IMG/VR virus record: IMGVR_UViG_3300030392_000196
Location: 1-28,114 of that record
Source of the DNA: a virus
Taxonomy: Duplodnaviria; Caudoviricetes
DNA: 28,114 bases
Reading direction: 5' to 3' (one strand)
This document shows, piece after piece, positions 1 through 24,608 of this stretch. Position numbers and translations under genes: made by a program. How positions within the stretch are numbered: position 1 is the stretch's first letter; every line of letters starts with the position of its first letter. The notes beneath the pieces are model-generated. The model saw nothing but the letters and a program-made list of their open reading frames with translations, did not search any database and was not told the DNA's origin.

Positions 1-1
1 T

Positions 2-289
2 TGTGGTCGGCTCGGGGGTCGGCTCGGGGGTCGGCTCGGGGGTCGGCTCACTTATGACCTGGAGTTGGATGCGGCTGATGTAGGAACCGTTCTTGTATCC
101 GCCGTTCTCGTTGCCAGGGACGTTCATATGGAAGCAAGTGTGCTTCCCCATTGCTTCCCAGGAACCAGAGTACGCTGGGTCGTAGTTGTAAATGAATCCC
201 CCGTTCCGTTCGATGATTCGGCGATTGTTTCCCTGGCGTGAGCAGTTGCCGCAAGGGCGGCTATTAGTCTGACCCTTTACTCGTGGCAT
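2..289 (-). CDS. Partial hypothetical protein (runs off left edge) with N-terminal CxxC and an EPTP-repeat linker
   Basis: Not in ORF track. ATG at 289 preceded by AAGGAG RBS; reads MPRVKGQTNSRPCGNCSRQG...QVISEPTPEPTPEPTPEPTT with no stop to the window edge. Confidence 0.75.
   Translation of the reverse strand, partial: MPRVKGQTNSRPCGNCSRQGNNRRIIERNGGFIYNYDPAYSGSWEAMGKHTCFHMNVPGNENGGYKNGSYISRIQLQVISEPTPEPTPEPTPEPTT
5..49. repeat. 12-bp tandem repeat (GGTCGGCTCGGG x3.75) encoding EPTP on the - strand
   Basis: Units at 5-16, 17-28, 29-40, partial 41-49. Confidence 0.95.
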
Positions 290-299
290 CGTGTCTCCT

Positions 300-816
300 T
301 TTATTCAACCCTTGATTTTGCCTGGCTTTGGCACCCAGGCTAGGGCTTAAGGGAGCGACTGTTTTCGTTTGCCGCTCCCTGCCTCACCGTTAATCCGTGA
401 ACAACTCAACTCAATATGTAGCGGTGCGTTTTACTAAACAGCTGATTGACCCGAAGGCCGTGCTGCCCGATTTTCGTCGGCTATTGAGGGGCTAGTAGAG
501 ACACCCACCGTTTGTGGAACCGTCGTCCGAAACGTATCTCGGCTGACCTATGGTCTTCCCGCTTCTGCTCGTCACAGTCGCTAGTGGATGTGTCTGCGTC
601 CGCTTGGTTCGTGGTTGTGTTCGTCGCCTGGTCTTTGAGCAGCCCAGCCTGCTGGCGGATTTGTCGGCTCATCGTGGCGGCTCTTAAGCTAGCCCTGGAT
701 GCCTTTGCAGTACCTGTCCTTACTGCGTTCCCGCTTTCGGGAGTCTTGCGACTCAGCGGTTTGGGTGTGCGTATTCGATTTTTAAGGTGCCTGTTTCGTG
801 TCTGTTCTCTTGAACT
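300..816 (-). ncRNA. Candidate long structured leader or ncRNA between the leftward promoter and the CDS at 289
   Basis: Multiple hairpins on - strand: GAGUC-GCAA-GACUC (741-754), CCCG-AAAG-CGGG (730-741), GCAGUA..UACUGC (707-726), GGCC-UUCG-GGUC (448-459), GGGAGCG..CGCUCCC (351-379), GCCUGG..CCAGGC (320-340); no convincing ORF. Confidence 0.5.
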
Positions 817-822
817 AAAGGA

Positions 823-851
823 AGCATACCTAACGTATTGTTATATGTCAA
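823..851 (-). promoter_or_regulatory. Sigma70-type promoter (leftward) with a palindromic operator in the spacer
   Basis: - strand TTGACA (851-846), 17-bp spacer, TATGCT (828-823). Confidence 0.75.
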
Positions 852-959
852 GTGTTATTTCAAGCAATTTTAGAATTGATATTCCGGCGTTTAATAATAT
901 GTTGCTCAGTCCCTCGCATGTGCGCCTATATAATAGGTAGGGCTATTAAATAGGTAAGA

Positions 960-988
960 GTGACGGCTTGGGGCAGCCGGAGTATGAT
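960..988 (+). promoter_or_regulatory. Possible sigma70 promoter for the HTH gene
   Basis: GTGACG-17 bp-TATGAT upstream of the RBS at about 1017-1027. Confidence 0.35.
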
Positions 989-1030
989 TATGGCAAGCGA
1001 GTCTTGCATGTTGTAAGGAAGGAGGGAGAT

Positions 1031-1381
1031 ATGGTGACGTTTCGAAGTAGGGACGGTAAAGGAATGACAGTGACCTACCCAGAGGGACTGGACGTCACTG
1101 GCTGGACAGACGCCGAGGTGATGGAACTGGTCAAGAAGCAGAATGCCCAGGCACTTGAGGACTACATGGCATCGCCGGATACGACACCCGAATTACTGCG
1201 TCAGTTGCATGATGCCAAGGTAACCTATCAGGCCATAGCCAGCGAAGTCGGCGTTTCGTACATGACAATCTATCGCTGGTCACGGGGATTTTCGAAGCCC
1301 CGTCCTGCCAAGCCAGTCAATGAAACTTTGATGTTTATGTGCAATTTTGAGTCCATCAAACGAGGCCATTTCATACGGTAA
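1031..1381 (+). CDS. Cro/XRE-like helix-turn-helix regulator
   Basis: C-terminal HTH pattern VTYQAIASEVGVSYMTIYRWSRG; ATG 1031 follows strong AAGGAGGG RBS (ORF track starts at 968). Confidence 0.75.
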   Translation: MVTFRSRDGKGMTVTYPEGLDVTGWTDAEVMELVKKQNAQALEDYMASPDTTPELLRQLHDAKVTYQAIASEVGVSYMTIYRWSRGFSKPRPAKPVNETLMFMCNFESIKRGHFIR

Positions 1382-1435
1382 AAGAGGGGTCAGATAAGGC
1401 CAAAATCAGGCTTTTTCTGGCGTATGCTAGATAAT

Positions 1436-1640
1436 ACTATATATTCTGTTACAGAATGGGTTCGTGCCTGAGAGAAAAAGAGGAGCGAGAGAGCACGTTG
1501 CCACACCTTGGTTAGCAAAAATAAATCCCCCCGAGAAAACGGCTCTGAGGACGTTCTGAGGGATTTATTTTTTGGAGTAGAAGAATACTATATATCACAT
1601 TTTGTTATATATACCAAAAGTTAAATCCTGATTTTCGGCC
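1436..1640. repeat. ~200-bp non-coding element, copy 1 (diverged copy at 24765-24970)
   Basis: Colinear shared blocks GGTTCGTGCCT, CGGCT..GAG..CGTTCTGA.GGATTT and exact ATATATACCAAAAGTTAAAT; offset 23329-23330 across the element. Confidence 0.8.
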
Positions 1641-1730
1641 CTAAATCGCCCAATTTAATACAGCAATTTAACGTGTTAAAACCACATTTTTAATCTTAAT
1701 TTAACTAAGGGAAAAGGGGTATTAAATTAA

Positions 1731-2099
1731 ATGGCTAGTCCTCAAAGTAAGACATCGGAGGGGCAGAAAGGCGCACACTTAGAGAGTGTGCTTCTGGTCT
1801 ACTGGGAGTCCACTTGTTCAGCGAATAAGAGGGATGTGATATCGACGCATTGGGCTGACAGCCTGCCAAAATTCCAAACCATATGGGTAGACTGCCTTGG
1901 TGTCGTAGGGACGAAAGGGAATGATGCCTTTCATGTGGAGGGCATAACTCCGCAAGCCCTCATGCCCAATATGAATGCCTTCGAAAAGCTGGTGTTCCTA
2001 CGTGCGTTGGAGAGAAAGCTGGCCCTACAGACCGGCTGGGATATCAGCGGTGTGACTCGGGAGGTGGTAGACTGGCTTGGCGAAGAGGTCTTAGAGTAG
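1731..2099 (+). CDS. Hypothetical protein
   Basis: 122-aa ORF after an AT-rich region, ends 7 nt before the ParB-like gene. Confidence 0.55.
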   Translation: MASPQSKTSEGQKGAHLESVLLVYWESTCSANKRDVISTHWADSLPKFQTIWVDCLGVVGTKGNDAFHVEGITPQALMPNMNAFEKLVFLRALERKLALQTGWDISGVTREVVDWLGEEVLE

Positions 2100-2106
2100 G
2101 AGAATC

Positions 2107-2790
2107 ATGGTTACGTTTCGAGATAGGATTACTGAACTGCGGCGTGTGCCAGCGAGTGAATTGCAGGGCAATCCGAAGAACTGGCGGCGACATCCCGTCC
2201 ACCAGCGTGAAGGATTAACGACCATGCTGGAGCGTATAGGCTATGCGGATGCCGTGATAGCACGGGAAACAGAGGATGGCTTAGTGCTTGTTGACGGCCA
2301 CCTCCGGGTAGACATATCGCCCGAAGCTGTTATCCCGGTATTGGTGGTTGATTTATCCGATGCCGAAGCTGACGAGGTGCTGGCAACCCTAGACCCACTG
2401 ACATCCCTGGCGGAGCCGGACGCTGGTTTATTGCAGGGTTTATTGGAAGGTTTAGAGACAGATGACACCCTCCAGGTATTGCTCCAAGATATAAGCGATA
2501 GCTATAACGTCAGTTTGACTGAGTTATTGGAGCAATCCACAGAGGCCGCCTACACAGAGTTGCCAGAACAGTGGGGCGGCCACGAATTAACTCCTGGAGC
2601 CGTGTTGCCAGTGGCGGCGCACGAAGGGAGGGCGAACCTGAAGGCGTTTATGTTCTATATAGAGCAGGATAAATATGAGACGCTCATGGAAACCTTGTTC
2701 ACCCTCGGCGAAGCCTGGGACATTGATACGATAGCCGATGTGGTATTTGAAGCTGTACGGAGGGCCGGAGACGATGCAGCAACTGGCTGA
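2107..2790 (+). CDS. ParB/Srx N-terminal domain protein (phage, terminase/modification-associated type)
   Basis: NPKNWRRHP and LVDGHLR motifs, then IPVLVVDLSDAEADEVLATLDP; AGGAG RBS. Confidence 0.85.
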   Translation: MVTFRDRITELRRVPASELQGNPKNWRRHPVHQREGLTTMLERIGYADAVIARETEDGLVLVDGHLRVDISPEAVIPVLVVDLSDAEADEVLATLDPLTSLAEPDAGLLQGLLEGLETDDTLQVLLQDISDSYNVSLTELLEQSTEAAYTELPEQWGGHELTPGAVLPVAAHEGRANLKAFMFYIEQDKYETLMETLFTLGEAWDIDTIADVVFEAVRRAGDDAATG

Positions 2791-3715
2791 GATACGAGTA
2801 CGCACCAAAACACCGAAAGCAGAGCTAGAGCAGAAGGTAGGGAAAGTGCTGCGGGAGTCCGACTATAATATCCGCTGCACTGGCCCAACGAAGGTGGCAA
2901 TGCCGGACGGGAAGCCTTTATTGGTCTATCTGCCTGGAATGCTGTCAGGCCAATCCCACGCCGATGCCTATGATGTCCTGCACACTATCCGAGGCGAAGG
3001 GAACCGCAACCTGGCAAGCGGCGCACCCAGCTTCCAGACAGGCAACCGCACACGCTTCAAACCAGTTAAGAGCAGCATTATCGGCAATATTGACCCACTC
3101 ACTTCGGTGCCGTATTGCCGCACTACCGCTTGGACGGGCCGTAACGCTGAGTCATTTACCTCGTTATTCCCGTTCTTCAGGGAGGTGGAGGCCCAGTTTG
3201 CCCATTATGTGCCGGATAGATACGCTGCGCAGAAGGCTCGTGCTGATAGCACTCACCCTGATTGGATGGTGGGAGGGACGGTATTTACGACGCTTACGGT
3301 AAATAACACTTATCCAACAGGCGTTCACACCGATAAGGGGGATTTGGATGCCGGTTTTTCCTGTTTAACGACCTGGCGACGAGGAGATTACACTGGCGGC
3401 CACTTAACATTCCCTGAATGGCGAGTTTCTATAGATTTACAAGATGGCGACCTGTTATTGATGGATGCCCATCAATGGCATGGCAATACCGTTCTGGACT
3501 TACACTCAGAGGACGCTGAGCGGATATCCCTGGTCTTGTACTACCGCACCAAAATGCTGAACTGCGGCTCGCCCGAAGAAGAAATAGACAAAGAGGTAAC
3601 AGCTAAGAAACGCCTGCTTGGGAAGCCTGCTGTGTGGCTTGGCACCAGTGGGCCAGCGGAGTTCCCCCGTATGGATACGGAGGCACTGGGCGAAGCAGTT
3701 ACCTCGGTGGAATAG
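2774..3715 (+). CDS. TET/JBP-family 2OG-Fe(II) dioxygenase (5-methylpyrimidine dioxygenase)
   Basis: YCRTTAW, FTTLTVN, HxD (GVHTDKGD), distal His (HQWHGNT) and 2OG-binding RxS (ERISLVLYYR); probable ATG 2774 after GGAG. Confidence 0.85.
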   Translation: MQQLAEIRVRTKTPKAELEQKVGKVLRESDYNIRCTGPTKVAMPDGKPLLVYLPGMLSGQSHADAYDVLHTIRGEGNRNLASGAPSFQTGNRTRFKPVKSSIIGNIDPLTSVPYCRTTAWTGRNAESFTSLFPFFREVEAQFAHYVPDRYAAQKARADSTHPDWMVGGTVFTTLTVNNTYPTGVHTDKGDLDAGFSCLTTWRRGDYTGGHLTFPEWRVSIDLQDGDLLLMDAHQWHGNTVLDLHSEDAERISLVLYYRTKMLNCGSPEEEIDKEVTAKKRLLGKPAVWLGTSGPAEFPRMDTEALGEAVTSVE

Positions 3716-3736
3716 CCGGAAACGCAAAACAGCGTG

Positions 3737-3795
3737 TCTCTAAGCCGTTTTCAGGAGGTGCGAGAGGTTTTTCCGTGTGATAGTGTGGGGCAGCC
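3737..3795 (-). repeat. Copy of the dispersed CCTGAAAACGGCTTAGA motif, between the TET and PLP genes
   Basis: Reverse complement of 3739-3755 is identical to 20567-20583; flanks resemble 24828-24882. Confidence 0.7.
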
Positions 3796-3826
3796 TGAAA
3801 GGGCAAGAGAAAGGGAGGAGAACGCC

Positions 3827-4885
3827 TTGTCCGTTTCAAGTAAGCCTCATGTAGTAAACCTTGGCAGGGCTGAGAGCCATTGGGAAGATACCCTCCTTGA
3901 CCTGACTCCGGTGGAAGAAATTGATGGCCTGGTGTTCAAGCGTGAAGATAAATATGCGCCACTTGGCTACGGGTGCATCAATGGCTCGAAACTACGACAG
4001 CTAATCTGGCTGGTCAAACAATACATAGAGGGTGGAGGCAGGCGTGGATTGATTTCCGGTGCCAGCGTCCACAGCCCACAGCTATCGATGGGGACTGCCG
4101 TCGCCAATCACTTTGGCCTCCCTAGCACTCACGTGATAGGAGCCACAACGCCTGAAGCCTCACTCAAGCATGTCGATGTCGAAATGGCTACGCTCATGGG
4201 AGCCGAGTTCCAGTATTCCAGAGTCGCCTACAACAAAGCCCTACAAACCAAGGTTCAATCCCTATTGCAAGAGCCGGAATATCGAGGCTATTTTTATCTG
4301 GAGTATGGTGTATCGCTTGACCATTGGAACCATCCATCCAGGGAAATTGAGGCCTTCCACCGCATAGGGGCGGAACAGGTTAAGAATATCCCTGAGTGTG
4401 ATAGTCTAATCATCCCGGCTGGTAGCTGTAACAGCCTTGTCTCTATCCTGTATGGCCTGGCTATATATAAGCCCAAGGTGCGCAACCTTGTGCTGATAGA
4501 AATCGGGCCAAATAAACGGGACTGGGTTCATGACAGGATGATAGCCTTACAGTCAACTCTCTATAGCGGCACATGGAGGACTGGTAAGCCGTTTGGACAG
4601 ACTCATCCCCCGGCTCGAATACTCGACGGCTCGCTATATTCTGTGGAATACCACGACTTACATCGCACTGGCTATGTAAGTTATCAAGACATGATGACAT
4701 ACCAGCATGGCAGCATCGAGTTCCATCCACGCTATGAGGGGAAGGTCATGACTTACCTGGCAGACCAGCGGCCCGACCTACTTAGCCCGGACAATGTCAT
4801 CTGGGTTATAGCCGGAGAAGGGAAGCGAGAGAAATTCATGCGAGTTATCGCCCGTGAGACTATGGCCCGGAACAATACGCTATGA
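3827..4885 (+). CDS. Fold-type II PLP-dependent enzyme (ACC deaminase/D-Cys desulfhydrase-like; phage base-modification type)
   Basis: LTPVEE..FKREDK..NGSKLRQ PLP-lysine motif, IPAGSCNS phosphate loop, FHPRYEGK; probable TTG start 3827 after GGGAGGAG (ORF track starts at 3734). Confidence 0.8.
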   Translation: MSVSSKPHVVNLGRAESHWEDTLLDLTPVEEIDGLVFKREDKYAPLGYGCINGSKLRQLIWLVKQYIEGGGRRGLISGASVHSPQLSMGTAVANHFGLPSTHVIGATTPEASLKHVDVEMATLMGAEFQYSRVAYNKALQTKVQSLLQEPEYRGYFYLEYGVSLDHWNHPSREIEAFHRIGAEQVKNIPECDSLIIPAGSCNSLVSILYGLAIYKPKVRNLVLIEIGPNKRDWVHDRMIALQSTLYSGTWRTGKPFGQTHPPARILDGSLYSVEYHDLHRTGYVSYQDMMTYQHGSIEFHPRYEGKVMTYLADQRPDLLSPDNVIWVIAGEGKREKFMRVIARETMARNNTL

Positions 4886-5670
4886 GATTGCTGGTGAATC
4901 AGGCTTGGGCTGTGTCCTTTGACGAATATGGGATTGACGACGTGAAAGACGGCAAGATGTCGTTCCTGTATTGGGTTAAAGAACACTTCCCCGCTGTGCA
5001 AGTACACGGGGCCGGTCAGCTTTACGTTTACAAGGCACTCAAACGCTATATTGAAATCTATCCACAATCCATTGACCGTGTCTATGAGTATTTTGGTGGT
5101 AGTGGCATAGGCTCATCAATAATCCAAGGACTGTTCCGGCCTGTCTACCATGCGGTATATGATATTGACCCGCTATGCGTAGAGCATCTACGCAGACAGA
5201 AATTCTCCTGCAAGCTGCATATCCGCCAGGCAGACGCAAAGGTCGCCATGCTGGAGGATATGCACGACCCAGCGATTGCGCCTGACCTGGTAGCCTGGGA
5301 TTCCGGCAATTCCACGGCTTTGTATATGGGCCAATGGCAGGAGCAGTTGGACGGGGTATTCGCCCAGCATCCGAAGGCTGTCCAGATGACGGATATCAGC
5401 CTTGCTAGACTGCACCTGCAACGCAAGCGATACAGCGAGATATTAGGGCGAGATTTCAAGAACGGGCCGGAATACCTTCTAGCTTTGGCTGACTGGGTAT
5501 ACGAGCGTTATCAGTATCGCCCACTGGCTATGGCCTACCGAGAGTTCGCCTGTATGATGTATGTCCCCACGACGGTGCCGTGGTCTGCTGACCGCCAGGC
5601 ACGAGCTTGGGAGCCAGAAATGTATCACCTAACTAAATCAGACGGTGAGGTAGCGGTGATGGCATGGTGA
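4882..5670 (+). CDS. Class I SAM-dependent methyltransferase-like protein
   Basis: Motif I VYEYFGGSGIGS, acidic beta2 end (VYDID), QADA, DLVAWD; no C5 PC motif or DPPY/NPPY; ATGA overlap with the PLP gene. Confidence 0.65.
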   Translation: MRLLVNQAWAVSFDEYGIDDVKDGKMSFLYWVKEHFPAVQVHGAGQLYVYKALKRYIEIYPQSIDRVYEYFGGSGIGSSIIQGLFRPVYHAVYDIDPLCVEHLRRQKFSCKLHIRQADAKVAMLEDMHDPAIAPDLVAWDSGNSTALYMGQWQEQLDGVFAQHPKAVQMTDISLARLHLQRKRYSEILGRDFKNGPEYLLALADWVYERYQYRPLAMAYREFACMMYVPTTVPWSADRQARAWEPEMYHLTKSDGEVAVMAW

Positions 5671-6761
5671 CGATTAGCCCACTATTGACGGCAGGGCTGG
5701 ACTTCCGGCTTCCTGAATACCGCTCCGAAGTCTTCCAAAGATTCTATACGTTCCATCTGAAGTATCAGAGCCATCCAGGATGCGTGTATTACCTAATGCC
5801 CTATCTAGCTGAAACCGAAGGATGGTCGCCTGAGCAAAGGCTGTGGTTCGCCTTCTTGAATGGCAACACGCAGAACCCAGTCACGTCCTATATCATCTTC
5901 CATAAATTCCCAGACTTCGAGAACTTGGACATAGTTGCGCTGGCAGATTGGTTCAACGACCCACGCATCTATCAAAACCTGGCATGGGATACAGACCGCC
6001 GCCATCATAAGGTTATGTTCATTAGGGCTGTTGATTCGTACCAGTCCAACCTATACGGCAAGACCCAATGGGAATTCTTTAGCGACCTATGCACCCACGA
6101 CGAGTATTCGAACTTCCGCCGTGTGTGGGACTTTGTATCGGAAAGATTCCTGTCGTTTGGCAGGCTATCGACATTCAGCTACCTCGAATACCTTCGCATC
6201 ATGGGGGCTGACCTTGATTGCGACCAGTTGTTCCTAGAGGACAGGGAAGGCTCACGCAGTCACCGGAATGGCATCTGCAAGGTGATAGGCCGTGACGACC
6301 TGGACTGGCACTCGTCCAACCCTGGCTTCGATGGGCGATACTCCCCAGACTTGATTAAACAGCTAGAAAACGCCGGAGAAACGCTTCTCGCTGACGCTAA
6401 GGTACGCAATGAAGGGATGCCTTGGGCCAATGATGTGAGTTACTTCACATTGGAAAGCGCACTCTGCACATACAAGTCCTGGCACCGTAAAAACCGACGT
6501 TATCCCAATGTGTACAATGACCTTCTATTCAATCGTATTGAGCACGCCGAAGCACGTTGGATTCGGCCCAAGTTGGACATATTTTGGGATGCTCGGCAGC
6601 TATTGCTTCCCCCCAATCTGTTGATGGAAGAAAACCCGTTGGACGTGGGATGTGTGCCGTTGAAACAGAACCACTACCTCAGCACCGGCGAAGTCATTAT
6701 GATGGAACGGGATTGGAAGTGCTTCGATAACGAATACGCACGTGCGAGGATAAGCGCATGA
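5664..6761 (+). CDS. Amino acid:DNA transferase (aGPT-Pplase family, HhH-glycosylase-like fold)
   Basis: WDTDRR, FGRLSTFSYLEYL HhH-like segment, GSRSHRNG, catalytic-type TLESALCTYKSW and RYP motifs; sits next to a P-loop kinase. Confidence 0.8.
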   Translation: MVTISPLLTAGLDFRLPEYRSEVFQRFYTFHLKYQSHPGCVYYLMPYLAETEGWSPEQRLWFAFLNGNTQNPVTSYIIFHKFPDFENLDIVALADWFNDPRIYQNLAWDTDRRHHKVMFIRAVDSYQSNLYGKTQWEFFSDLCTHDEYSNFRRVWDFVSERFLSFGRLSTFSYLEYLRIMGADLDCDQLFLEDREGSRSHRNGICKVIGRDDLDWHSSNPGFDGRYSPDLIKQLENAGETLLADAKVRNEGMPWANDVSYFTLESALCTYKSWHRKNRRYPNVYNDLLFNRIEHAEARWIRPKLDIFWDARQLLLPPNLLMEENPLDVGCVPLKQNHYLSTGEVIMMERDWKCFDNEYARARISA

Positions 6762-7429
6762 TGGATTGGTTAGTGTATGTAGTTGGATACCCTGGCAGCG
6801 GCAAGACCACGGCGATGCAGAAAGCCATAGGCATGGAGGACGTATTAGAACAGGATGGGTTAGTGCAGACTGTGCCGTTTGTTCACACGGTGTATCCCAG
6901 TGGCATCGTAGAATTAGGCCGCCAGAGGGATACTTATGGCGGCACGGATTCCCTCGCCCTGAACGCCCAGCCAGTGGTGGAGAAATGGTTGAGTGAAATA
7001 GATGTGCCAGTGGTAGTCGCAGAGGGCGATAGGCTGGCTAATCGTAAGTTCTTCGACGCAGCCTGTGAATACAACAATGAACTCCAGGAGTGCCTCTCCC
7101 GTTACCTGTGTTTCGTGCATATCAAATGCCCCGAACTAACCGCTCGTAAACGTGCCTGGGAGCGTGGCTCACGATTCAACGAGTCGTGGCTGAAGGGCCG
7201 CATCAGCAAGGTGGATAGCCTGGTTAGGCTGGCTTCTAGGTCTCATATCACCGTCTCAGAGGGTACGTGGAATACGAGTTCTTATAAATCATGGAAGGAG
7301 CCTGTTGACCTTACTATGAACGTGTTTGGCACGATGGAGGGGGAGTTCCATGAAATAGATGGGACACAGTCACCAGACGCCGTTGCAATGGAATTACGCT
7401 CAATCATCGAGACATTGAACGATGACTAA
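6758..7429 (+). CDS. P-loop nucleotide kinase, putative 5-hydroxymethyluracil DNA kinase
   Basis: Walker A GYPGSGKTT, LG..GGTDSL, EGDRL, and lid R..RGS motifs; ATGA overlap with the transferase. Confidence 0.75.
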   Translation: MMDWLVYVVGYPGSGKTTAMQKAIGMEDVLEQDGLVQTVPFVHTVYPSGIVELGRQRDTYGGTDSLALNAQPVVEKWLSEIDVPVVVAEGDRLANRKFFDAACEYNNELQECLSRYLCFVHIKCPELTARKRAWERGSRFNESWLKGRISKVDSLVRLASRSHITVSEGTWNTSSYKSWKEPVDLTMNVFGTMEGEFHEIDGTQSPDAVAMELRSIIETLNDD

Positions 7430-7946
7430 TCGTGCCGGCGAGAGCAAGTTATCCCAGCGGCGTATAGACGCAAGGAACAGGCAGCAGCAAGCCCTGGAGC
7501 TGCGGATGGCTGGCCGGACATGGCAAGAGATTGCTGACCACCTTGGTTATGCAGGCCATACCGGTGCCTATGAAGCTGTCAAAGTAGCACTCTCACGCTC
7601 GAATCACGAGGCGGTTGAGGACTATCGCAGTTTGACACTAGGGCGATTGACAAAGATACTACAAGTCCACTGGCCTATCATGCTCCAAGGGGACGGGAAT
7701 GCGACCCGTTATTGTTTGCAAACCATCAAGGATATGCGAGACCTATTGGGCCTGGATTCCCCGTCCAAGTTTGAACACACTGGAGCCGATGGCGCACCTA
7801 TTCGGCATGAGGTGATAACACTAGACATTGGAGACATTGCAGAAGCCATCTCTGTCTTGCGAGATGCTGGGGCCGTCCGGTTGGAAAGCAATGGGTACGC
7901 TCCGGCTACCGTGGACGCAGTACATTCCCCACAAGCCGACTCCTAA
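7422..7946 (+). CDS. terS: Terminase small subunit
   Basis: N-terminal HTH (ALELRMAGRTWQEIADHLGY), LLGLD..KFEHTGADGAPI C-terminal motif, directly upstream of terL. Confidence 0.8.
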   Translation: MTNRAGESKLSQRRIDARNRQQQALELRMAGRTWQEIADHLGYAGHTGAYEAVKVALSRSNHEAVEDYRSLTLGRLTKILQVHWPIMLQGDGNATRYCLQTIKDMRDLLGLDSPSKFEHTGADGAPIRHEVITLDIGDIAEAISVLRDAGAVRLESNGYAPATVDAVHSPQADS

Positions 7947-9234
7947 ACAGCTGGCATTCCTGTTACTGGATAACCAGGAAGCCCTCTATGGAGGCGCAGC
8001 CGGAGGAGGCAAGAGTGATGCGCTGCTTATGGCCGCCTTGCAGTATGTTGATTACCCTAGCTATTCAGCCCTGCTCCTGAGACGGGCATACACCGACCTA
8101 TCCTTGCCAGGCGCACTAATGGATAGAGCGAGAGCATGGCTCATGCCTACACAGGCCCGATGGCGAGACCACCTGAAGACATGGGAGTTCCCCAGTGGCG
8201 CAACCCTAACCTTCGGCTATCTCGAAAAGCCAGGTGATGAATATCGCTATCAGTCCACCGAATTTCAGATGATAGGATTTGATGAATTAACACAGTTCAC
8301 CGAGAACCAATACCGCTATTTATTCAGCCGCCTCCGCCGTCCTCAAGACGCTGGCATCCCGCTGCGGATGCGGTCTGCTAGTAATCCAGGTGGAGTTGGA
8401 CATGAGTGGGTACGTGAGCGATTCATAGATGCCGAAGGCTCGATTGATACACGTATATTCATTCCGGCCTCGCTGCCGGACAACCCTTATCTAGACCAAG
8501 TAGCCTATCTGGAATCCCTTAACCAACTCGACCCAGTTACCCGTCAGCAGCTATTGGTCGGTGACTGGACGGCACGGCAGCCTGGAAACCTGTTCAAGCG
8601 AGAATGGTTCCCGATAGTTGAGGAACTTCCTGTGATGCGGAATAGAAGTGTCCGCTATTGGGACTTGGCTGCAACGCCACTGAGGGCCGGAACAGACCCC
8701 GACTGGACGGCTGGGGTACGAGTCGATTATGGCTCAGATGGCCTCTATTACGTGGTGGATGTACAGCGAATGCGGGGGACTCCGGGCGAGGTGGAATCCC
8801 TCATCAAACAGACAGCCATGATAGATGGTAGTAGTACTCAGATATATATCGAACAAGAGCCAGGAGCGAGCGGCGTCAATACGATTTACCACTACGTGAC
8901 CAGGGTGTTGCCGGAGTACACGGTGCGAGGCCAAAGAGCTACAGGCTCCAAGGTGGAAAGGGCTGGGCCTGTGAGTAGCCAATCGGAAGTTGGCAACGTG
9001 AGACTGGTACGAGGAGCGTGGTTAGGGCCGTTCTTGGATGAAGTTGAGGCTTTCCCCCTAGGAGGGCATGACGACCAGGTAGACGGCCTCTCAGGGGCGT
9101 TTATGCGGCTTCGAAGTATGCACTCGCCCGAACCCTTGGTGCATCAGTTGGTCGGAGCAAGACGCATCAGCCCAGCAAACAATCCGCTCGGACTCGACCC
9201 TGACAACCCTATATACTGGGATTCGGATAGGTAA
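7891..9234 (+). CDS. terL: Terminase large subunit
   Basis: PTPKQ, Walker A YGGAAGGGKS, Walker B IGFDELTQF, SASNPGG, nuclease WDLA..D and HDDQVD; start at 7891 or slightly upstream. Confidence 0.95.
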   Translation: MGTLRLPWTQYIPHKPTPKQLAFLLLDNQEALYGGAAGGGKSDALLMAALQYVDYPSYSALLLRRAYTDLSLPGALMDRARAWLMPTQARWRDHLKTWEFPSGATLTFGYLEKPGDEYRYQSTEFQMIGFDELTQFTENQYRYLFSRLRRPQDAGIPLRMRSASNPGGVGHEWVRERFIDAEGSIDTRIFIPASLPDNPYLDQVAYLESLNQLDPVTRQQLLVGDWTARQPGNLFKREWFPIVEELPVMRNRSVRYWDLAATPLRAGTDPDWTAGVRVDYGSDGLYYVVDVQRMRGTPGEVESLIKQTAMIDGSSTQIYIEQEPGASGVNTIYHYVTRVLPEYTVRGQRATGSKVERAGPVSSQSEVGNVRLVRGAWLGPFLDEVEAFPLGGHDDQVDGLSGAFMRLRSMHSPEPLVHQLVGARRISPANNPLGLDPDNPIYWDSDR

Positions 9235-9263
9235 TAGGCATCCCGAGATGTTCGGAGGCGTTA

Positions 9264-9434
9264 ATGACTGGCTGGAGCGAAACATACTACAAGGGCTTGC
9301 CCCAATGGCAACACGAGGCGAACAATGCCTGGTTCAAGCGTGCGCTCGAACTCCTAGCGGACACTGGAATCCTGGCAGTTCCCAATCTTCGGAAAACCTT
9401 CAATAAACGTGGTGAGGAGGTCAGAGGGACTTAA
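9264..9434 (+). CDS. Small hypothetical protein (56 aa)
   Basis: Not in ORF track. GGAGG RBS, MTGWSETYYKGLPQWQHEAN...GEEVRGT; stop abuts the portal ATG. Confidence 0.65.
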   Translation: MTGWSETYYKGLPQWQHEANNAWFKRALELLADTGILAVPNLRKTFNKRGEEVRGT

Positions 9435-10817
9435 ATGGTGCTCTTTACGAATGGGTTAGACCCAGTTTCGGAATCGTTAATGCGGTGGATACAACAGCAG
9501 GCCGACGACAGGCGTGTGGATTACGAGTTGGCACGTCGATACTATGGAGGTGACCACGACACCGCCATAACCGACAGGCTGAAGAAATTCCTTCCTCCTC
9601 GCTTGCAGTTTAGGGATAACTTTATGAACGTGGTGGTGGACAGCCTATCTGAGCGACTGACAGTAATGGGCTTTGAGGTGGAGAATGAGGCTGTGGCTGA
9701 ATGGGCCTGGGACTTGTGGAACCGTAATCGGATGGACTATACGCAGAACGTAGTCCATGCCGAGACCATAATGCTGGGCGATAGCTACTTGCTATGCGAT
9801 TGGGATGATGGGCATGAGCGGCCTCGTTGGACGCACCAGATGGCCGAGATGATTGTGCCGCACTACGACGAAAATACACGTGAGATAGACTGGGCCAGCA
9901 AGAAATGGATACAGCGACCCCATATCGGCGAGGAGCCGGAAACCCGATTGAACCTGTATTACCCAGACCGTGTTGAGAAATATGTGGCGCATGGAGGCGT
10001 ATGGCGGCAATACCAGGACGAACTTGACGAGACCTGGCCTGTCGCATGGCTAAACCGTGCTGGGGAACCCTTAGGGGTGCCGCTCGTTCACTTTCGCAAT
10101 CGGCCTATGGGGGCAGATTTTGGGCAGTCAGAGATAATCAACGTCATACCCATGCAAGATTTACTGAACAAGAGCCTGATTGACCTGACGATGATATTGG
10201 ATACCCTTGCCTTTCCACAGCGATATACCCTGAATGTGAACCACGGGTCGAGTCGGCTGGATATCTTGCCTGGCAGCGTCACAGAGTTCCACAGCGAGTA
10301 CGATGGTGGGTCAGTCGGGCAGTGGAGCGCAGCTAACGTAGACAGCCCTCTCAGGGCCATCGAGGCGTTAGTTCAGCACATCGCCGGAACTACTCGTACC
10401 CCTCAACACCTTTTCCAGATTATGGGCGGTGCCCCTAGTGGCGAGGCATTAAAGACAGCGGAGTCCGGCCTGGTTAACAAGGCCCGTCAGCGCATGGTGA
10501 ATTTCGGCAACTCCTGGGAGGATTGCATCATGATGGCGATGCGCATCCAGGCAGCCTTCGGGCAGGCCCAGCCGGAGATAGATGAAGGCTCCATTCGCAC
10601 TACCTGGGACGACCCGGAGACCCGAAATGAACTGAGCCACCTGGAATCCCTGCGCACCAAGATGGATTTGGGCATCACCAAGCATCAGATTTGGAGGGAG
10701 ATGGGGTATAACCAGGAGCAGATAGACGAGATGGAGCAAGACGCTACAGCGGAGCGTGTAGCGGAGACCAATATAGGGGCGGAGATACTGCGCAACTTCC
10801 AAGCCGGAACGATTTAA
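9435..10817 (+). CDS. Portal protein (SPP1 gp6-like)
   Basis: 460 aa after terL; YYGGDH, NFMNVVVDSLSERL, VPLVHFRN, GQSEI, FPQRY, PSGEALK motifs. Confidence 0.92.
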   Translation: MVLFTNGLDPVSESLMRWIQQQADDRRVDYELARRYYGGDHDTAITDRLKKFLPPRLQFRDNFMNVVVDSLSERLTVMGFEVENEAVAEWAWDLWNRNRMDYTQNVVHAETIMLGDSYLLCDWDDGHERPRWTHQMAEMIVPHYDENTREIDWASKKWIQRPHIGEEPETRLNLYYPDRVEKYVAHGGVWRQYQDELDETWPVAWLNRAGEPLGVPLVHFRNRPMGADFGQSEIINVIPMQDLLNKSLIDLTMILDTLAFPQRYTLNVNHGSSRLDILPGSVTEFHSEYDGGSVGQWSAANVDSPLRAIEALVQHIAGTTRTPQHLFQIMGGAPSGEALKTAESGLVNKARQRMVNFGNSWEDCIMMAMRIQAAFGQAQPEIDEGSIRTTWDDPETRNELSHLESLRTKMDLGITKHQIWREMGYNQEQIDEMEQDATAERVAETNIGAEILRNFQAGTI

Positions 10818-21543: not shown

Positions 21544-21749
21544 CAGTGACAGTCAGTGTGATATGCGAGAGTTTTGAGTGCTTGCCCAGTGAAGTGATGG
21601 ACGAAGACTGGCAATTAGTGCGGGATATATTGGACTACAGGTTGCTGATGAGTGCGAAAGACCAGCACAATCGAGATGCTAGTCAGATGCACCCGTCACA
21701 GATAGAAATGTGGAAGGAAATGGTCGAGGCAGTAGAGAGCGATGGCTGA
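21486..21749 (+). CDS. Frameshift extension of the tail assembly chaperone (GT)
   Basis: -1 frame KRLRHLGEYILG..ICESFECLPSEV..; overlaps the tape measure start. Confidence 0.75.
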   Translation, partial: KKRLRHLGEYILGDGPQPVAVTVSVICESFECLPSEVMDEDWQLVRDILDYRLLMSAKDQHNRDASQMHPSQIEMWKEMVEAVESDG

Positions 21750-24240
21750 AGCAACAACCGTAGCAATTCTTTTACAGGCTAAAGATAACGCTTCTGATGC
21801 CTTGAATAAGGTGAAGCAAAATGCCCAAGGGTTATCGGATAGCTTTGGCAGGCATCGTGTCAAGATAGGCATGGCGGCGGCTGGTATCGGTGCGGCCATC
21901 ACGGGTATTGGCGTAATGTCTGTTAAATCATCCTTAGACCAACAGCTAGGCATCAATCAACTTGATGTCGCACTTAAGAACATCGGGACAAGCTACGAAG
22001 CGAACAAGAAACAGATTGAGGACTTAGCCTCGGCGCAACAAGCGAAGACGAACTTCGGTGACGAGGAACAACGGAAGGCATTACAGAAGCTGGTGCAAGT
22101 GACAGGGGATTACGACCTGTCGATGCAAGCGATGATTCCGTTGATGGATATGTCAGCGGCGACAGGGATGAAGTTAGAGGGCGCAGCCGTGCTGGTCGCT
22201 CGTGCTGTGAGCGGAGAGGCAACGGCCCTCAAGCGGTACGGCATTGAGCTAGATGCAAGCACTGAACCACAGGAAGTCTTGAATGCGTTAATGGAAAAAT
22301 TTGCCGGACAAGCGGAAGCCGCTGCTGACCCCATGACCCAACTGAAGAACCGTGTGGGTGATTTGTTCCAAGTGTTCGGTGATTTACTCTTGCCTGTCAT
22401 TGAAAAGTTATTACCCAAGATAGAATCATTCGTGCGTGGCGTTATTGACTGGGCAGATGCGCATCCTGAGTTAGTTAAGTGGCTGGGGCTTGCTGGGGCG
22501 GCGTTAGGTGTAGTACTGGGGGTAGCTGGGCCACTGCTGTTGCTATTGCCGGGGCTAATCGCTGCCTTTGGCTTGTTATCAATAGCGATGGGGCCGATTG
22601 GGCTTCTTATTATTGGCATCGGTGCCGCCATTGCCGGGGGCATCATTGTCTGGCAAAAGTGGGAGGAAATTATAGATTTCCTCAAACGGGATTTGGCTGA
22701 CTTTGCCAAAAAGTTTATTGATATGGCAATCCAAATCTCGAAAGCCGGGAGTTTCTTACTTGGCTGGATGCCTAAAATCGGCGAAGATATTAAAGCAGGC
22801 ATCGCTATCGCTGTAGATAGCTTAGAAGGCATGAAAAGAAGCTTGGACGATTGGTCGGGTGTAACCCAGCGAGAAGCCAAGAAAGTGTCCCAAGCCTATG
22901 GTGACGTGGAAGATGTGCAGACGGAGATGGCAAAGACAGCACGGAAAGCTGAGTTAGAAATGTCTGGTTCAGCTATGGAGATGGCACGAAATGTCGGTGG
23001 GTCGGCTAACAAAGTTGTTGAGGCACTTGAAGAAGTGAAGTTGTCGAAGGTAGAGATGTATCTTGCGGCGAAGGAGGCCGTTATTCAAACATCTTTGGCC
23101 TACGGCGAGTTGGAAGATGCGGTTGGGCTTGCAACGGGCGGTGTAATAAGAAGCATCGACGAACTGGCGAGAGAGCAGGCAGATGCAGCCAGGGAGACAG
23201 AACGGATACTACAAGCTGAGTTGGATGCTAGGCAAGACATTGCGAATAAGATGTCTAGCTTGTTAAGCCGCCAACTTAGTGACCAACGCACGGCAAATGA
23301 AACTCTGCGAGATTACTGGCGGGAAACTAGCCAAGCGTACCAGAAAGAAACGCAAGCGCAGGCGGATACCGCTGCCAGAGAAACTCAGAGAATCTCTGAT
23401 TCATGGACTGGTTTCCGAAACGACCAAGACACCACCATGCAAGCCTTGGAAGATTCCGGTATTGGCTTTGAACAAGCGGTGAAACTGCTAGCGCAACGGC
23501 ACGGCATAAGCGTGATGCAAATGACCGACGACCTCGCAGCGGGTGAGGTTAAATATCGGGACACATTTGCGCTGATGGAATTTGCTGGCAGAGAGTCCAT
23601 AAATGGGATAATTGGAGATTATAAAAGGCTTGAGACAGAAAAAGCGTCACTGGACGCAGCTCTTTTATTGGGACAACAAGAAAGGGAAAGAAGGGTGGCA
23701 GCACAGGCTGAGGTCTTTACAGCAGAACGGCCTGAATTAAATGTGGGTCAAATGAACCGGCTGATAAACGTGGGAGGACTTGGGGCCGGAAAGGATACTA
23801 GCTTTGGGACAGGTCGGTCAACAATCGCTGGGGCATTTGCGGCCATACAGGGACACCGTGGTGGAATGATGCAAGGTGGCCTGAGTGATGAAGCACTTCT
23901 AGGAGAGATACTGAAAGCAGCCCCAGATGCCGCCTGGGGCAATCTTCCAGAAGGACTGCAAGAGATAAGAGATAGAGTAATCGCTGGCGTAAATGGCAAG
24001 GCTGGCGGTGGTTGGGCTGGTGGCAGAACGCTGGTGGGTGAACGTGGCCCTGAGATTGTCAATCTACCGACTGGGTCATACGTCAATCCGCACGGCAGCG
24101 GTAGCATGGGTGGTGGCTCTAATACGTTCCATTTCCACGGGGCTGTCTATGGCCTGGAAGACTTACGGCGTGTAGTGGTGGAAGCCGTGCGTGACCACGC
24201 TATCAGCGGTGGATTCCGTGGGGTATTCGGAGAGGCGTAA
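21742..24240 (+). CDS. Tape measure protein
   Basis: 832 aa, Ala/Leu-rich helical, N-terminal LQAKDNAS, central hydrophobic segment, C-terminal AGGG..LVGERGPE. Confidence 0.92.
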   Translation: MAEATTVAILLQAKDNASDALNKVKQNAQGLSDSFGRHRVKIGMAAAGIGAAITGIGVMSVKSSLDQQLGINQLDVALKNIGTSYEANKKQIEDLASAQQAKTNFGDEEQRKALQKLVQVTGDYDLSMQAMIPLMDMSAATGMKLEGAAVLVARAVSGEATALKRYGIELDASTEPQEVLNALMEKFAGQAEAAADPMTQLKNRVGDLFQVFGDLLLPVIEKLLPKIESFVRGVIDWADAHPELVKWLGLAGAALGVVLGVAGPLLLLLPGLIAAFGLLSIAMGPIGLLIIGIGAAIAGGIIVWQKWEEIIDFLKRDLADFAKKFIDMAIQISKAGSFLLGWMPKIGEDIKAGIAIAVDSLEGMKRSLDDWSGVTQREAKKVSQAYGDVEDVQTEMAKTARKAELEMSGSAMEMARNVGGSANKVVEALEEVKLSKVEMYLAAKEAVIQTSLAYGELEDAVGLATGGVIRSIDELAREQADAARETERILQAELDARQDIANKMSSLLSRQLSDQRTANETLRDYWRETSQAYQKETQAQADTAARETQRISDSWTGFRNDQDTTMQALEDSGIGFEQAVKLLAQRHGISVMQMTDDLAAGEVKYRDTFALMEFAGRESINGIIGDYKRLETEKASLDAALLLGQQERERRVAAQAEVFTAERPELNVGQMNRLINVGGLGAGKDTSFGTGRSTIAGAFAAIQGHRGGMMQGGLSDEALLGEILKAAPDAAWGNLPEGLQEIRDRVIAGVNGKAGGGWAGGRTLVGERGPEIVNLPTGSYVNPHGSGSMGGGSNTFHFHGAVYGLEDLRRVVVEAVRDHAISGGFRGVFGEA

Positions 24241-24608
24241 TGTTCGATTACAGATGCAAACTTCTAAGGGTCGTAGACGGCGATACCATCGATGTCAATC
24301 TTGACCTAGGTTTCAATGTCTGGCACAAGGCCAGAGTGCGAATGTTGGGGATAGATACGCCCGAATCACGAACCAGGAATTTAGAGGAGAAGGCTATGGG
24401 GCTGGCATCGAAAGCCAGACTCAAGGAACTTCTCAAAGGAAGCCAAGTAGAGATTGAATGTTCAAAAGAGAAAGGAAAATTTGGCAGGGTTCTTGGCATC
24501 GTGTGGGCGACTGACAAGGAAGGCAATCGCACCAACTGCAATAACCAACTCTGTGAAGAGGGCCATGCTCGCTCCTATTTTGGTGGCAAAAAGGAATCGT
24601 GGACGTAG
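24240..24608 (+). CDS. Thermonuclease (SNase-like) family protein
   Basis: [36 protein letters not shown]; TAATG overlap with the tape measure gene; no signal peptide. Confidence 0.88.

Follow-up and report, generated by a model that had tools for sequence, protein, structure and literature searches.

A TET/JBP dioxygenase next to a ParB-like gene in a marine phage fragment is a likely thymine hydroxylase of a predicted DNA hypermodification cassette

Gene organization of the locus

The window analysed here, that is, the whole of the 28,114-nucleotide IMG/VR record IMGVR_UViG_3300030392_000196, is a fragment of a marine siphovirus-like phage, estimated by CheckV to be ~70% complete. Upstream of the terminase genes lies a cassette of overlapping and co-oriented genes that encode, in this order, a ParB-like protein, a TET/JBP dioxygenase, a PLP-dependent enzyme, a methyltransferase-like protein, an amino acid:DNA transferase (AADT, formerly aGPT-Pplase2) and a P-loop kinase. 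These six genes form a compact, tightly coupled set.

The modification genes end at the gene at 7422–7946 (+ strand), which encodes a helix-turn-helix (HTH) protein of 174 aa that is probably the small terminase subunit (phrog_645, 3e-27; weak HTH_23 match); in one relative (L007) the homolog, with an HTH_23 match at 3.6e-9, is encoded ahead of the large terminase. In the window the large terminase gene is at 7828–9234 (+; Terminase_6C/6N; phrog_979, 3e-118). Within positions 1–9500, neither promoter-like sites (12 versus 9.0 ± 3.3 in shuffles) nor terminator-like sites (4 versus 7.5 in shuffles) were above shuffled sequence, and a scan of the window found no tRNA genes.

The dioxygenase gene and its catalytic residues

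The dioxygenase gene is intact and is contained in an open reading frame spanning 2738–3715 (+; 325 aa). The sequence-only reading of this DNA had placed the start at 2774, and this start (2774–3715, +) is the better one because it gives a product of 313 aa, as long as the four closest homologs (P0007–P0010; 85–92% identity), and because the alignment of 30 sequences (A2) begins there; the motif GAGGG lies 9 nt upstream, and the start overlaps the end of the ParB-like gene by 17 nt. The product is a TET/JBP Fe(II)/2-oxoglutarate dioxygenase, predicted to be a thymine dioxygenase of the 5mYOX clade C1 type: Tet_JBP (PF12851) matches residues 126–270 of the 325-aa frame at 79.1 bits (cut-off 34.9; E 3e-22). 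The name ‘queuine tRNA-ribosyltransferase' that a database gives to the protein is misleading.

The earlier description of intact HxD...H...RxS motifs was borne out, as the codons were read in the DNA and H185, D187, H233, H236, R250, S252 and C264 (313-aa numbering) are invariant throughout A2. The iron-binding HxD (H185-T-D187) is encoded at 3326–3334 (+; CAC at 3326–3328, GAT at 3332–3334), the distal iron-binding histidine H236, within HQWHGN, at 3479–3481 (+; CAT) and the 2-oxoglutarate-binding RxS (R250-I-S252) at 3521–3529 (+; CGG at 3521–3523, TCC at 3527–3529). Beyond the conserved Cys264, A2 delimits a C-terminal extension of 49 aa (3566–3712, +). In O'Toole et al. 2026 (PNAS, PMC13229309), an extension past the last conserved Cys is reported only for ParB-dependent 5mYOXs. 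The clade C2 sequences of its Dataset S11 stop 1–3 residues past the conserved Cys.

Among 2479 candidates scored, 1254 homologs of the dioxygenase were found at E≤0.001. Identity to 5mYOX176 is 35% over 282 aa (E 7e-64), the reference being a protein (P0127, from L214 and L203) that by eye is letter-for-letter identical to the 5mYOX176 of Dataset S11, and identity to the product of the 5mYOX183 gene is 37% over 302 aa. When the dioxygenase, the PLP enzyme, the AADT and the kinase were each searched as single sequences against PDB sequences, no usable match was obtained.

A ParB-like gene directly upstream of the dioxygenase

The gene at 2107–2790 (+) encodes a ParB-like protein of 227 aa (phrog_620 ParB-like, 1.6e-8) that is predicted to be an activator of the dioxygenase. 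In this protein an acidic linker joins an N-terminal domain of the ParB nucleotide-binding type to a short strand-helix-helix domain at the C-terminus. The latter is conserved as a block in the alignment of the homologs (A1), where N25 and G64 are invariant. The profile built from A1 (21 homologs) matches only the N-terminal domain of Spo0J/ParB/Noc proteins (1vz0, 1.4e-14), with matches of this type covering profile positions 2–87 to 2–90. No DNA-binding HTH was matched, and the protein had no Pfam hits at E≤0.01. This architecture resembles that of the published ParB activators, which combine a nucleotide-binding domain and a C-terminal domain without an obvious DNA-binding domain (PMC13229309). 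A scan of viral contigs with the protein itself as query found no relative; the relatives used here were obtained with profiles from open reading frames adjoining the dioxygenase relatives. The closest tested ParB relative is ParB183, the partner in the pair 5mYOX183/ParB183, to whose gene product (L131, IMG/VR contig 3300033233_000141, the accession being taken from Dataset S11 of PMC13229309) the window protein is 45% identical over 154 aa (E 3e-33). The sequence-only reading made no mention of this gene.

According to O'Toole et al., experiments show that phage 5mYOXs of clade C1 make 5-hydroxymethyluracil (5hmU), many of them only with an adjacent ParB-like activator, and the usual neighbours are a ParB, a kinase and an AADT (PMC13229309). 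For example, 5mYOX176 yielded ~25–35% 5hmU in E. coli, only when accompanied by ParB176, and oxidised T in vitro, while the rows of 5mYOX183/ParB183 in Dataset S2 (three alone, one with ParB) all give 0% 5hmU (PMC13229309).

For 134 distinct dioxygenase relatives, same-strand genes up to 6.5 kb away were surveyed. A ParB-like gene was found for 113 of them (directly upstream in 68), a kinase for 89 and an AADT for 91, with all three together in 77. The PLP enzyme is near 17 of the 134, in each case (17 of 17) with an AADT.

These data bear on whether the window enzyme depends on the ParB-like protein. The enzyme could be a thymine dioxygenase that works independently, with the ParB-like protein serving in timing, targeting or packaging-linked DNA handling; we regard this as unlikely. 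The ParB-like gene is not directly upstream in 45 of the 113 relatives that have one, many of these showing the order ParB-AADT-(PLP/MT)-kinase-dioxygenase; moreover, some clade C1 members have no ParB, a complex of 5mYOX176 and ParB176 was not trapped, and mutations of ParB nucleotide-binding residues were without effect (PMC13229309). However, the two genes overlap in the window, a ParB-like gene accompanies most of the relatives, the dioxygenase has the extended C-terminus that is typical of ParB-dependent enzymes, and all tested ParB-associated enzymes produced no more than ~1% 5hmU when alone (PMC13229309). Activation of the dioxygenase by the ParB-like protein is thus the preferred reading.

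Enzymes encoded downstream of the dioxygenase

The two genes that follow the dioxygenase and precede the transferase had been left unnamed by the sequence-only reading. The first (3734–4885, +) encodes a PLP-dependent enzyme of fold type II (383 aa), a homolog of the decarboxylase gp226 of Salmonella phage ViI (YP_004327553) with 41% identity over 365 aa (E 3e-84), nearly end to end. Its K86 aligns with K92, the aldimine lysine of gp226, which is named in PMC8989533 together with the roles of the ViI enzymes. In NCBIfam the protein has a weak match to the ACC-deaminase model TIGR01274 (4e-5), and in a protein atlas it falls into PALP-type phage clusters, some of which are fused to ADDT.

The second (4882–5670, +) encodes a protein of 262 aa that is predicted, from its fold and a structure match, to be a class I SAM-dependent methyltransferase-like protein. 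The AF2 model (pLDDT 93.4) has Trm1 (3axs) as its best PDB match (E 1.6e-8; TMq 0.57), and the profile gives a weak match to KsgA (7e-5); 196 representatives were found at E≤0.001. The gene was considered as the missing C5-cytosine methyltransferase (C5-MTase) and rejected, with Trm1 as best structural match and no DNA C5-MTase among the structural matches listed. Pfam, PF00145 included, gives no hit for the protein, and in an alignment of 41 homologs no Cys occupies a column that is invariant or nearly so; the protein is thus no canonical C5-pyrimidine methyltransferase.

The AADT (5664–6761, +; 365 aa) matches PF18724 at 1.3e-16. It is 44% identical to gp3 of Mycobacterium phage Prince and 29% identical (E 4e-28) to the serine:DNA transferase gp247 of ViI, a similarity that does not fix the amino-acid specificity; no BLAST hit at E≤0.01 to the glycine transferase gp51 of M6 was obtained. 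The kinase (6758–7429, +; 223 aa), a P-loop nucleotide kinase of family 3 (PF18751, 4.4e-18) and predicted 5hmU-DNA kinase, is 29% identical to Prince gp4 and has no BLAST similarity to ViI gp243. With the PF18751 and PF18724 genes 3–4 kb downstream of the dioxygenase on the same strand, the earlier statement that the neighbours belong to 5hmU-acting families is supported. In databases the kinase bears the name ‘terminase small subunit' and the transferase the name ‘DNA glycosylase'; both names are misleading and, like that of the dioxygenase, should not be propagated.

Serine is the best guess for the amino acid attached by the transferase, given that gp247 and gp226 of ViI are the pair to which the transferase and the PLP enzyme come closest. 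It is possible, if rather doubtful, that the pathway is the same through the transferase but attaches an amino acid or amine other than serine, and that the PLP enzyme performs chemistry other than decarboxylation. PLP enzymes of fold type II carry out many different reactions, the identity of the AADT to gp247 is low, and its closest AADTs, those of mycobacteriophages, have no PLP partner. On the other hand, the PLP enzyme resembles gp226, a demonstrated O-SerT decarboxylase, with the lysine aligned; it occurs with this type of AADT in all 17 relatives that have it, and homologs of the PLP enzyme and of the AADT occur in the same ViI-like phage groups. Furthermore, the glycine route requires a radical-SAM isomerase before the PLP chemistry (PMC8989533), and Pfam scans of the open reading frames of the window found none. 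Serine with subsequent decarboxylation is retained as the tentative assignment.

Position of the dioxygenase among tested enzymes

A tree was built quickly from 139 distinct sequences, with SH-aLRT as its only measure of support and without the 5mC-specific clades A/B, clade D and the eukaryotic TET/JBPs. The six C2-type rows, including the 5mYOX98 gene, separate on a branch of length 2.42 with support 100. The window dioxygenase falls among the other 133 rows, on the side of the tested C1 enzymes, together with the genes of 5mYOX176, 174 and 183. Within that side it belongs to a subclade of 66 rows that includes none of the three tested enzymes that could be placed, and the signature of the subclade, YPTGVH, is found in none of the constructs tested in Dataset S11 (PMC13229309).

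Absence of C5-MTase and dUMP hydroxymethylase genes

Six-frame searches of the whole record gave 0 matches to PF00145 (C5-MTase), PF00303 (thymidylate synthase/dUMP hydroxymethylase) and PF00383 (dCMP deaminase); the same searches were positive in 9, 10 and 12, respectively, of 14 known genomes used as controls. A glycosyltransferase was likewise not found in Pfam scans of the window, open reading frame by open reading frame. The earlier observation that the window has no C5-MTase, thymidylate-synthase-like or glycosyltransferase gene thus stands. The sequence-only reading had also proposed a search of the rest of the genome for a dUMP hydroxymethylase, a dCMP deaminase or a C5-MTase; the absence of these genes is shown for the 28-kb fragment only, because the record is ~70% complete and the remainder of the genome could encode a C5-MTase or a dUMP hydroxymethylase.

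Records of 25 relatives, 10 of them at least 90% complete, were examined in the same respect. A thymidylate-synthase-like gene was present in 0 of the 25, including 0 of the 10. PF00145-type matches occurred in five of the 25, all five being among the 10; four of these are over the cut-off and, by coordinate arithmetic, 41–78 kb from the dioxygenase. The fifth (relative L058), 5.5 kb from the dioxygenase, was not counted as a C5-MTase, its 19.4 bits being below the cut-off of 22.

These results concern the substrate. Oxidation of 5mC supplied by a C5-MTase that is encoded by the host or by the ~30% of the genome outside the record, with the kinase and transferase elaborating 5hmC, appears improbable. 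A C5-MTase in the part outside the record would agree with its incompleteness and with the PF00145-type matches somewhere in half of the near-complete relatives. Both 5mYOX97 and 5mYOX176 oxidise 5mC as well as T in vitro (PMC13229309), and since characterised phage enzymes thus act on either base, the substrate is not fixed by the protein alone. In addition, Burke et al. (PNAS 2021, PMC8256090) described contigs with a C5-MT, a TET and a P-loop kinase, some also with an aGPT-Pplase, and suggested phosphorylation of 5hmC; this anticipates, for contigs with a C5-MT, the 5hmC-directed kinase and transferase that the sequence-only reading had offered as a new alternative. The clade A/B 5mC dioxygenases of that study, compared here by description, have the TET/JBP domain and post-replicative action in common with the window enzyme and likewise may neighbour a P-loop kinase and an aGPT-Pplase.

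Yet the 5mC-active phage TETs of clades A/B come paired with their C5-MTs (PMC8256090), whereas the window record has no C5-MTase, the adjacent methyltransferase-like gene has neither the conserved Cys nor a PF00145 signal, and the four over-cut-off matches in relatives are distant from the dioxygenase. Apart from TET40 and TET89, the TETs of clades C1, C2 and D showed no activity on 5mC when efficient heterologous MTases provided it (PMC8256090). Moreover, the window enzyme groups with tested T-dioxygenases, has a ParB partner and carries the C-terminal extension.

Taken with the gene neighbours, the 35% identity to 5mYOX176 and the position on the C1 side of the tree, thymine hydroxylation is the best reading: the enzyme encoded at 2774–3715 likely hydroxylates thymine in replicated phage DNA to 5hmU, which would feed its cassette neighbours. 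While this part of the sequence-only reading holds, the novelty that it implied does not, as the pathway kind was published between 2021 and 2026. Lee et al. 2021 (PMC8989533) already noted that TET_JBP contigs beside T-hypermodification genes, without a dUMP hydroxymethylase, probably convert thymine to 5hmU. The window is therefore a further example and not a discovery, namely one more natural instance of a predicted, fully post-replicative thymine hypermodification cassette.

Proposed pathway

In the proposed scheme, in which substrate, dependence on ParB and end product are all inferred, the dioxygenase is likely activated on double-stranded DNA by the ParB-like protein encoded upstream, as was shown for 5mYOX176/ParB176, and it would convert thymine to 5hmU in phage DNA that is already replicated. 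The kinase would then phosphorylate the new hydroxyl, and the transferase would replace the phosphate with an amino acid, putatively serine. Decarboxylation of the attached amino acid by the PLP enzyme would leave a 5-(2-aminoethoxy)methyl-uracil-like base, which the methyltransferase-like protein may then methylate. By analogy with MnmC2, which methylates nm5U in tRNA, one could imagine a post-replicative 5-(2-aminoethoxy)methyl-uracil of the ViI type that is then methylated by the Trm1/KsgA-like enzyme, a speculative product that we hold to be unlikely as a whole. If true, methylated aminoethoxymethyl-uracil would be an addition to the catalogue of DNA bases, and its first step would be the work of a subclade of predicted ParB-assisted thymine dioxygenases. 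The cassette would join the front end of a ParB-assisted thymine dioxygenase to the back end of a ViI-type PLP decarboxylase, a combination that was not found in the texts consulted, figures aside.

Comparison with known systems

The window shares with the 5mYOX clade C1 systems, as typified by 5mYOX176/ParB176, the catalytic residues, an upstream ParB-like gene, the extension following the Cys, the neighbouring P-loop kinase and AADT, and the lack of a neighbouring C5-MT (PMC13229309). It differs in that the enzyme belongs to the separate 66-row subclade and has a tail of 49 aa versus ~21 aa in 5mYOX176, and in that its neighbours include a gp226-like PLP enzyme and a methyltransferase-like protein, whereas the text of PMC13229309 names GATases for this subclass.

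The 5-NeOmdU pathway of Salmonella phage ViI (Lee et al. 2018 and 2021) comprises the kinases gp67 and gp243, the serine:DNA transferase gp247 and the PLP decarboxylase gp226. Homologs of gp226 and gp247 and a P-loop kinase of the 5hmU-DNA kinase family are found in the window as well, although this kinase is not BLAST-similar to gp243, and the window has the additional methyltransferase-like gene. In ViI, 5hmU is made before replication via the dUMP hydroxymethylase route (a general statement in PMC8989533); the window fragment has a dioxygenase instead.

Kinetoplastid JBP1/2, likened here by their published description, belong to the same superfamily and convert T in DNA to 5hmU, the reaction predicted for the window enzyme. 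They act without a partner and are followed by glucosylation (PMC13229309); in the similarity network of that paper JBPs are only distantly linked to the phage enzymes.

The cultured Mycobacterium phage Prince carries, as genes 1–5, a ParB-like gene, a ‘thymidine hydroxylase', an AADT, a kinase and a terminase, in the order seen in the window. A literature search returned nothing on the modified base of Prince and its relatives among its 10 best-ranked matches. Prince and its relatives represent a minimal four-gene version without the PLP and methyltransferase-like genes, and the window dioxygenase is distant from that of Prince (28% identity over 170 aa).

In a metagenome scan, the HTH protein encoded at 968–1381 matched a 2793-base TARA contig (99% identity) and, weakly, a 2.3-kb sequence. 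A contig of 43,236 bases is also on record as a carrier of the same methyltransferase-like protein (4882–5670).

A TET/JBP dioxygenase within a run of predicted DNA-modification genes

The record is linear (28,114 bases; ~70% complete by CheckV), and all of its relevant genes lie on the + strand. Upstream of the large terminase gene stands a series of genes, each overlapping or almost touching the next, which encode, in order, a ParB-like protein (2107-2790), the TET/JBP dioxygenase (2774-3715), a 383-aa PLP-dependent protein (3734-4885), a 262-aa class I SAM methyltransferase-like protein (4882-5670), an amino acid:DNA transferase (AADT; 5664-6761; PF18724), a P-loop kinase (6758-7429; PF18751) and an HTH protein, probably the small terminase (7422-7946). 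Head and tail genes fill the remainder. Such systems were reportedly predicted by Iyer et al. in 2013.

The dioxygenase gene is real. ORF 2738..3715 contains a Tet_JBP domain (PF12851) that scores 79.1 bits, where the cut-off is 34.9. The start at 2774 chosen in the sequence-only reading is preferable: the resulting protein has 313 aa, as do the four closest homologs (85-92% identity), and the dioxygenase alignment begins there. Invariant among the 30 aligned homologs are H185, D187, H233, H236, R250, S252 and C264, whose codons were confirmed directly in the window DNA. The family is sizeable: of the 2479 candidates scored, 1254 match at E≤0.001.

A predicted ParB-like partner

Phage thymine dioxygenases form two subclasses according to O'Toole et al. 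(PNAS 2026; PMC13229309): clade C2 acts alone, and many members of clade C1 adjoin a ParB homolog and require it. There, the C1 enzyme 5mYOX176 together with ParB176 is reported to give ~25-35% 5hmU in E. coli, versus ≤~1% alone; in vitro, ParB was required on dsDNA only, and the two enzymes studied in reconstituted form (5mYOX97 and 5mYOX176) acted on 5mC as well.

The ParB-like protein of the window is 45% identical to ParB183, the partner of 5mYOX183 (154 aa; E 3e-33). Alone it had no Pfam match, and the profile of its 21-homolog alignment matched the Spo0J/ParB/Noc N-terminal domain in PDB (best 1.4e-14), with no match past position ~90 in ParB, Spo0J and Noc chains; the homologs also share a conserved block at the C-terminus. 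Such an architecture fits the description of the partners in PMC13229309 as an NBD plus a CTD with no obvious DNA-binding domain. The dioxygenase alignment places 49 residues beyond the conserved Cys264, and the C2 sequences in Dataset S11 of that study stop 1-3 residues past this cysteine; the study describes a C-terminal extension solely for ParB-dependent enzymes.

The final ~20 dioxygenase residues form an acidic tail (3650-3712; FPRMDTEALGEAVTSVE), the M-D-x-[ED]-A-[ML] core of which is found again at the end of many close homologs. This tail might serve the enzyme for docking onto ParB or some other partner. The ParB183 construct (Dataset S11; contig L131) carries ~150 extra N-terminal residues relative to homologs, rich in Arg, Gly and Ala, which may stem from a wrongly assigned start codon in a GC-rich contig. 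Such an error, if real, would be a possible reason for the 0% activity measured for the 5mYOX183/ParB183 pair.

Placement relative to tested enzymes

IMG/VR contigs retrieved by short motif patterns were matched to Dataset S11 accessions, identifying L131, L217 and L239 as the sources of 5mYOX183/ParB183, 5mYOX174 and the C2 enzyme 5mYOX98, respectively. Protein P0127, encoded by L214 and L203, matches 5mYOX176 letter for letter (compared by eye). The window dioxygenase is 35% identical to P0127 (282 aa; E 7e-64) and 37% identical to the 5mYOX183 gene product (302 aa).

A quick maximum-likelihood tree was built from 186 rows (185 loci plus the window; matches of ≥200 profile positions), which after removal of duplicates gave 139 distinct dioxygenase sequences; the length filter left out the protein of Mycobacterium phage Prince. 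A branch 2.42 long (support 100) separates the six C2-type rows from the remaining 133, among which are the window and the genes for 5mYOX176, 174 and 183. The tree spans phage sequences outside clades A/B and D, excludes eukaryotic enzymes, carries SH-aLRT support only and has several long branches. The window falls in a 66-row clade (support 100; neighbour L003, 69% identity) that contains none of these three placed enzymes and whose signature, YPTGVH, has no occurrence in the Dataset S11 constructs. The gene is filed here as a further, predicted ParB-associated clade C1 thymine dioxygenase.

Conservation of the module

At the 62 loci fetched as dioxygenase relatives (tblastn, E≤1e-5), the kinase was found at 51, the AADT at 25, the 383-aa protein at 18, the ParB-like protein at 13 and the 262-aa protein at nine. 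Iterated profiles, run over all loci with three cultured-phage loci excluded, gave 134 distinct dioxygenase sequences (184 loci). Within 6.5 kb and on the dioxygenase's own strand, 113 of the 134 have a ParB-like gene (directly upstream in 68), 91 the AADT, 89 the kinase and 77 all three; these are lower bounds, because many contigs are incomplete, and come from a non-random sample selected by likeness either to the window protein or to a motif, using profiles that can drift. By the same count, the 383-aa protein is near 17 dioxygenases, with the AADT present every time, and the 262-aa protein near seven.

Two layouts recur, ParB-dioxygenase-...-AADT-kinase (the window's own) and ParB-AADT-(PLP/MT)-kinase-dioxygenase. 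In the cultured Mycobacterium phage Prince the genes run ParB-like, ‘thymidine hydroxylase', AADT, kinase, terminase. Among the relatives, the central genes of the cassette vary. One locus has a dual-specificity-phosphatase-like gene (L007 9126-9680) with the AADT on one side and the kinase on the other. In another, a 572-aa protein (L058 7708-9426), near which the profile search put an AADT match, ends in an FAD oxidoreductase (DAO) domain; its likeness to the PaMx11 flavin lyase points to a putative glycine route in L058.

Sources of 5hmU or 5mC

The sequence-only reading noted a TET/JBP gene with no C5-MTase, thymidylate-synthase-like gene or glycosyltransferase in the window. This stands, because six-frame searches of the whole ~70%-complete record found no C5-MTase, thymidylate-synthase-like gene or dCMP deaminase (controls positive in 9 of 14 known genomes for C5-MTase, 10 for thymidylate synthase and 12 for dCMP deaminase), and ORF-wise Pfam scans of the window found no glycosyltransferase; ~30% of the genome lies outside the record. 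None of 25 relatives' records, including 10 that are ≥90% complete, has a thymidylate-synthase-like gene. PF00145-type matches occur in five of the 25, all among the near-complete ones: four are above cut-off and 41-78 kb from the dioxygenase (coordinate arithmetic), and the fifth lies 5.5 kb away and, at 19.4 bits, falls short of the cut-off (22). With only ~50% identity and far bigger genomes, these relatives reveal little of the part of the genome missing from the window.

The proposed conversion of T to 5hmU is probably right in substance, yet it is not new, having been printed as an inference in 2021 and as an experiment in 2026. Lee et al. (2021; PMC8989533) describe contigs without a dUMP hydroxymethylase in which a TET_JBP protein lies beside thymidine-hypermodification genes, and propose that such proteins probably convert thymine to 5hmU. 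In Burke et al. (2021; PMC8256090), 5mC-active phage TETs come paired with C5-MTs, and one clade C2 enzyme oxidised ~10% of T. The alternative that the kinase acts on 5hmC, which the earlier reading also held to be new, is likewise raised there.

Downstream enzymes

Salmonella phage ViI gp226 (YP_004327553), for which decarboxylation of O-seryl-thymidine to 5-NeOmdU has been demonstrated (PMC8989533), shares 41% identity with the 383-aa protein across 365 aa (E 3e-84). K86 of the latter aligns with gp226 K92, the lysine proposed by Lee et al. (PMC8989533) for the PLP aldimine. The AADT matches the ViI serine:DNA transferase gp247 (29%; E 4e-28). Neither the AADT nor the PLP enzyme matched its M6 counterpart (glycine transferase gp51 and gp52, respectively), and no radical-SAM enzyme, a prerequisite of the glycine route ahead of PLP chemistry (PMC8989533), turned up in Pfam scans of the window ORFs. 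On these grounds the serine route is favoured, with modest confidence, as the best guess for this cassette.

The model of the 262-aa protein has a class I SAM methyltransferase fold (pLDDT 93.4), with Trm1 as best PDB match (E 1.6e-8; TMq 0.57); its profile weakly matches KsgA (7e-5). A role as C5-pyrimidine methyltransferase was rejected, since no cysteine is among the residues that are nearly invariant across 41 homologs. An analogy with tRNA MnmC, touched on by Lee et al. (PMC8989533), suggests that the protein might add a further methyl to the appended group. Only the pairing of a ViI-type PLP decarboxylase with this unstudied methyltransferase-like protein might lead to something as yet undescribed.

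Pfam lacks a model for the 262-aa family, of which 196 representatives were found at E≤0.001; its nearly invariant residues are E69, F71, G73, G75, H90, D140, P164, D171, Y198 and Y212. In the seven relatives the gene lies between dioxygenase and AADT or between AADT and kinase. An identical copy is recorded on three contigs, the longest of 43,236 bases; a fuller assembly of the phage therefore exists.

Annotation and other genes

The window kinase matches phrog_800, labelled ‘terminase small subunit', which is also the RefSeq name of M6 gp54 (L233 13686-14249), a shown 5hmU-DNA kinase. Dioxygenase relatives are labelled ‘queuine tRNA-ribosyltransferase', ‘SNF2 DNA repair protein' or ‘DnaJ', and the AADT ‘DNA glycosylase' or ‘nucleotide pyrophosphohydrolase' in phage records. 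These labels are an annotation error that has spread.

Immediately upstream of the ParB-like gene is a 122-aa ORF (1731-2099) with a weak, sub-threshold match to the immunity protein Imm8 (E 0.0037). A staphylococcal-nuclease-like gene (24240-24608; PF00565, 9e-13), in the tail gene block, an unusual location for a nuclease, directly follows an 832-aa gene (21742-24240) without Pfam family that is taken as the tape-measure gene from its size and position. An HTH protein encoded at 968-1381 is 99% identical to one on a 2793-base Tara Oceans contig (L234), so the phage is probably marine.
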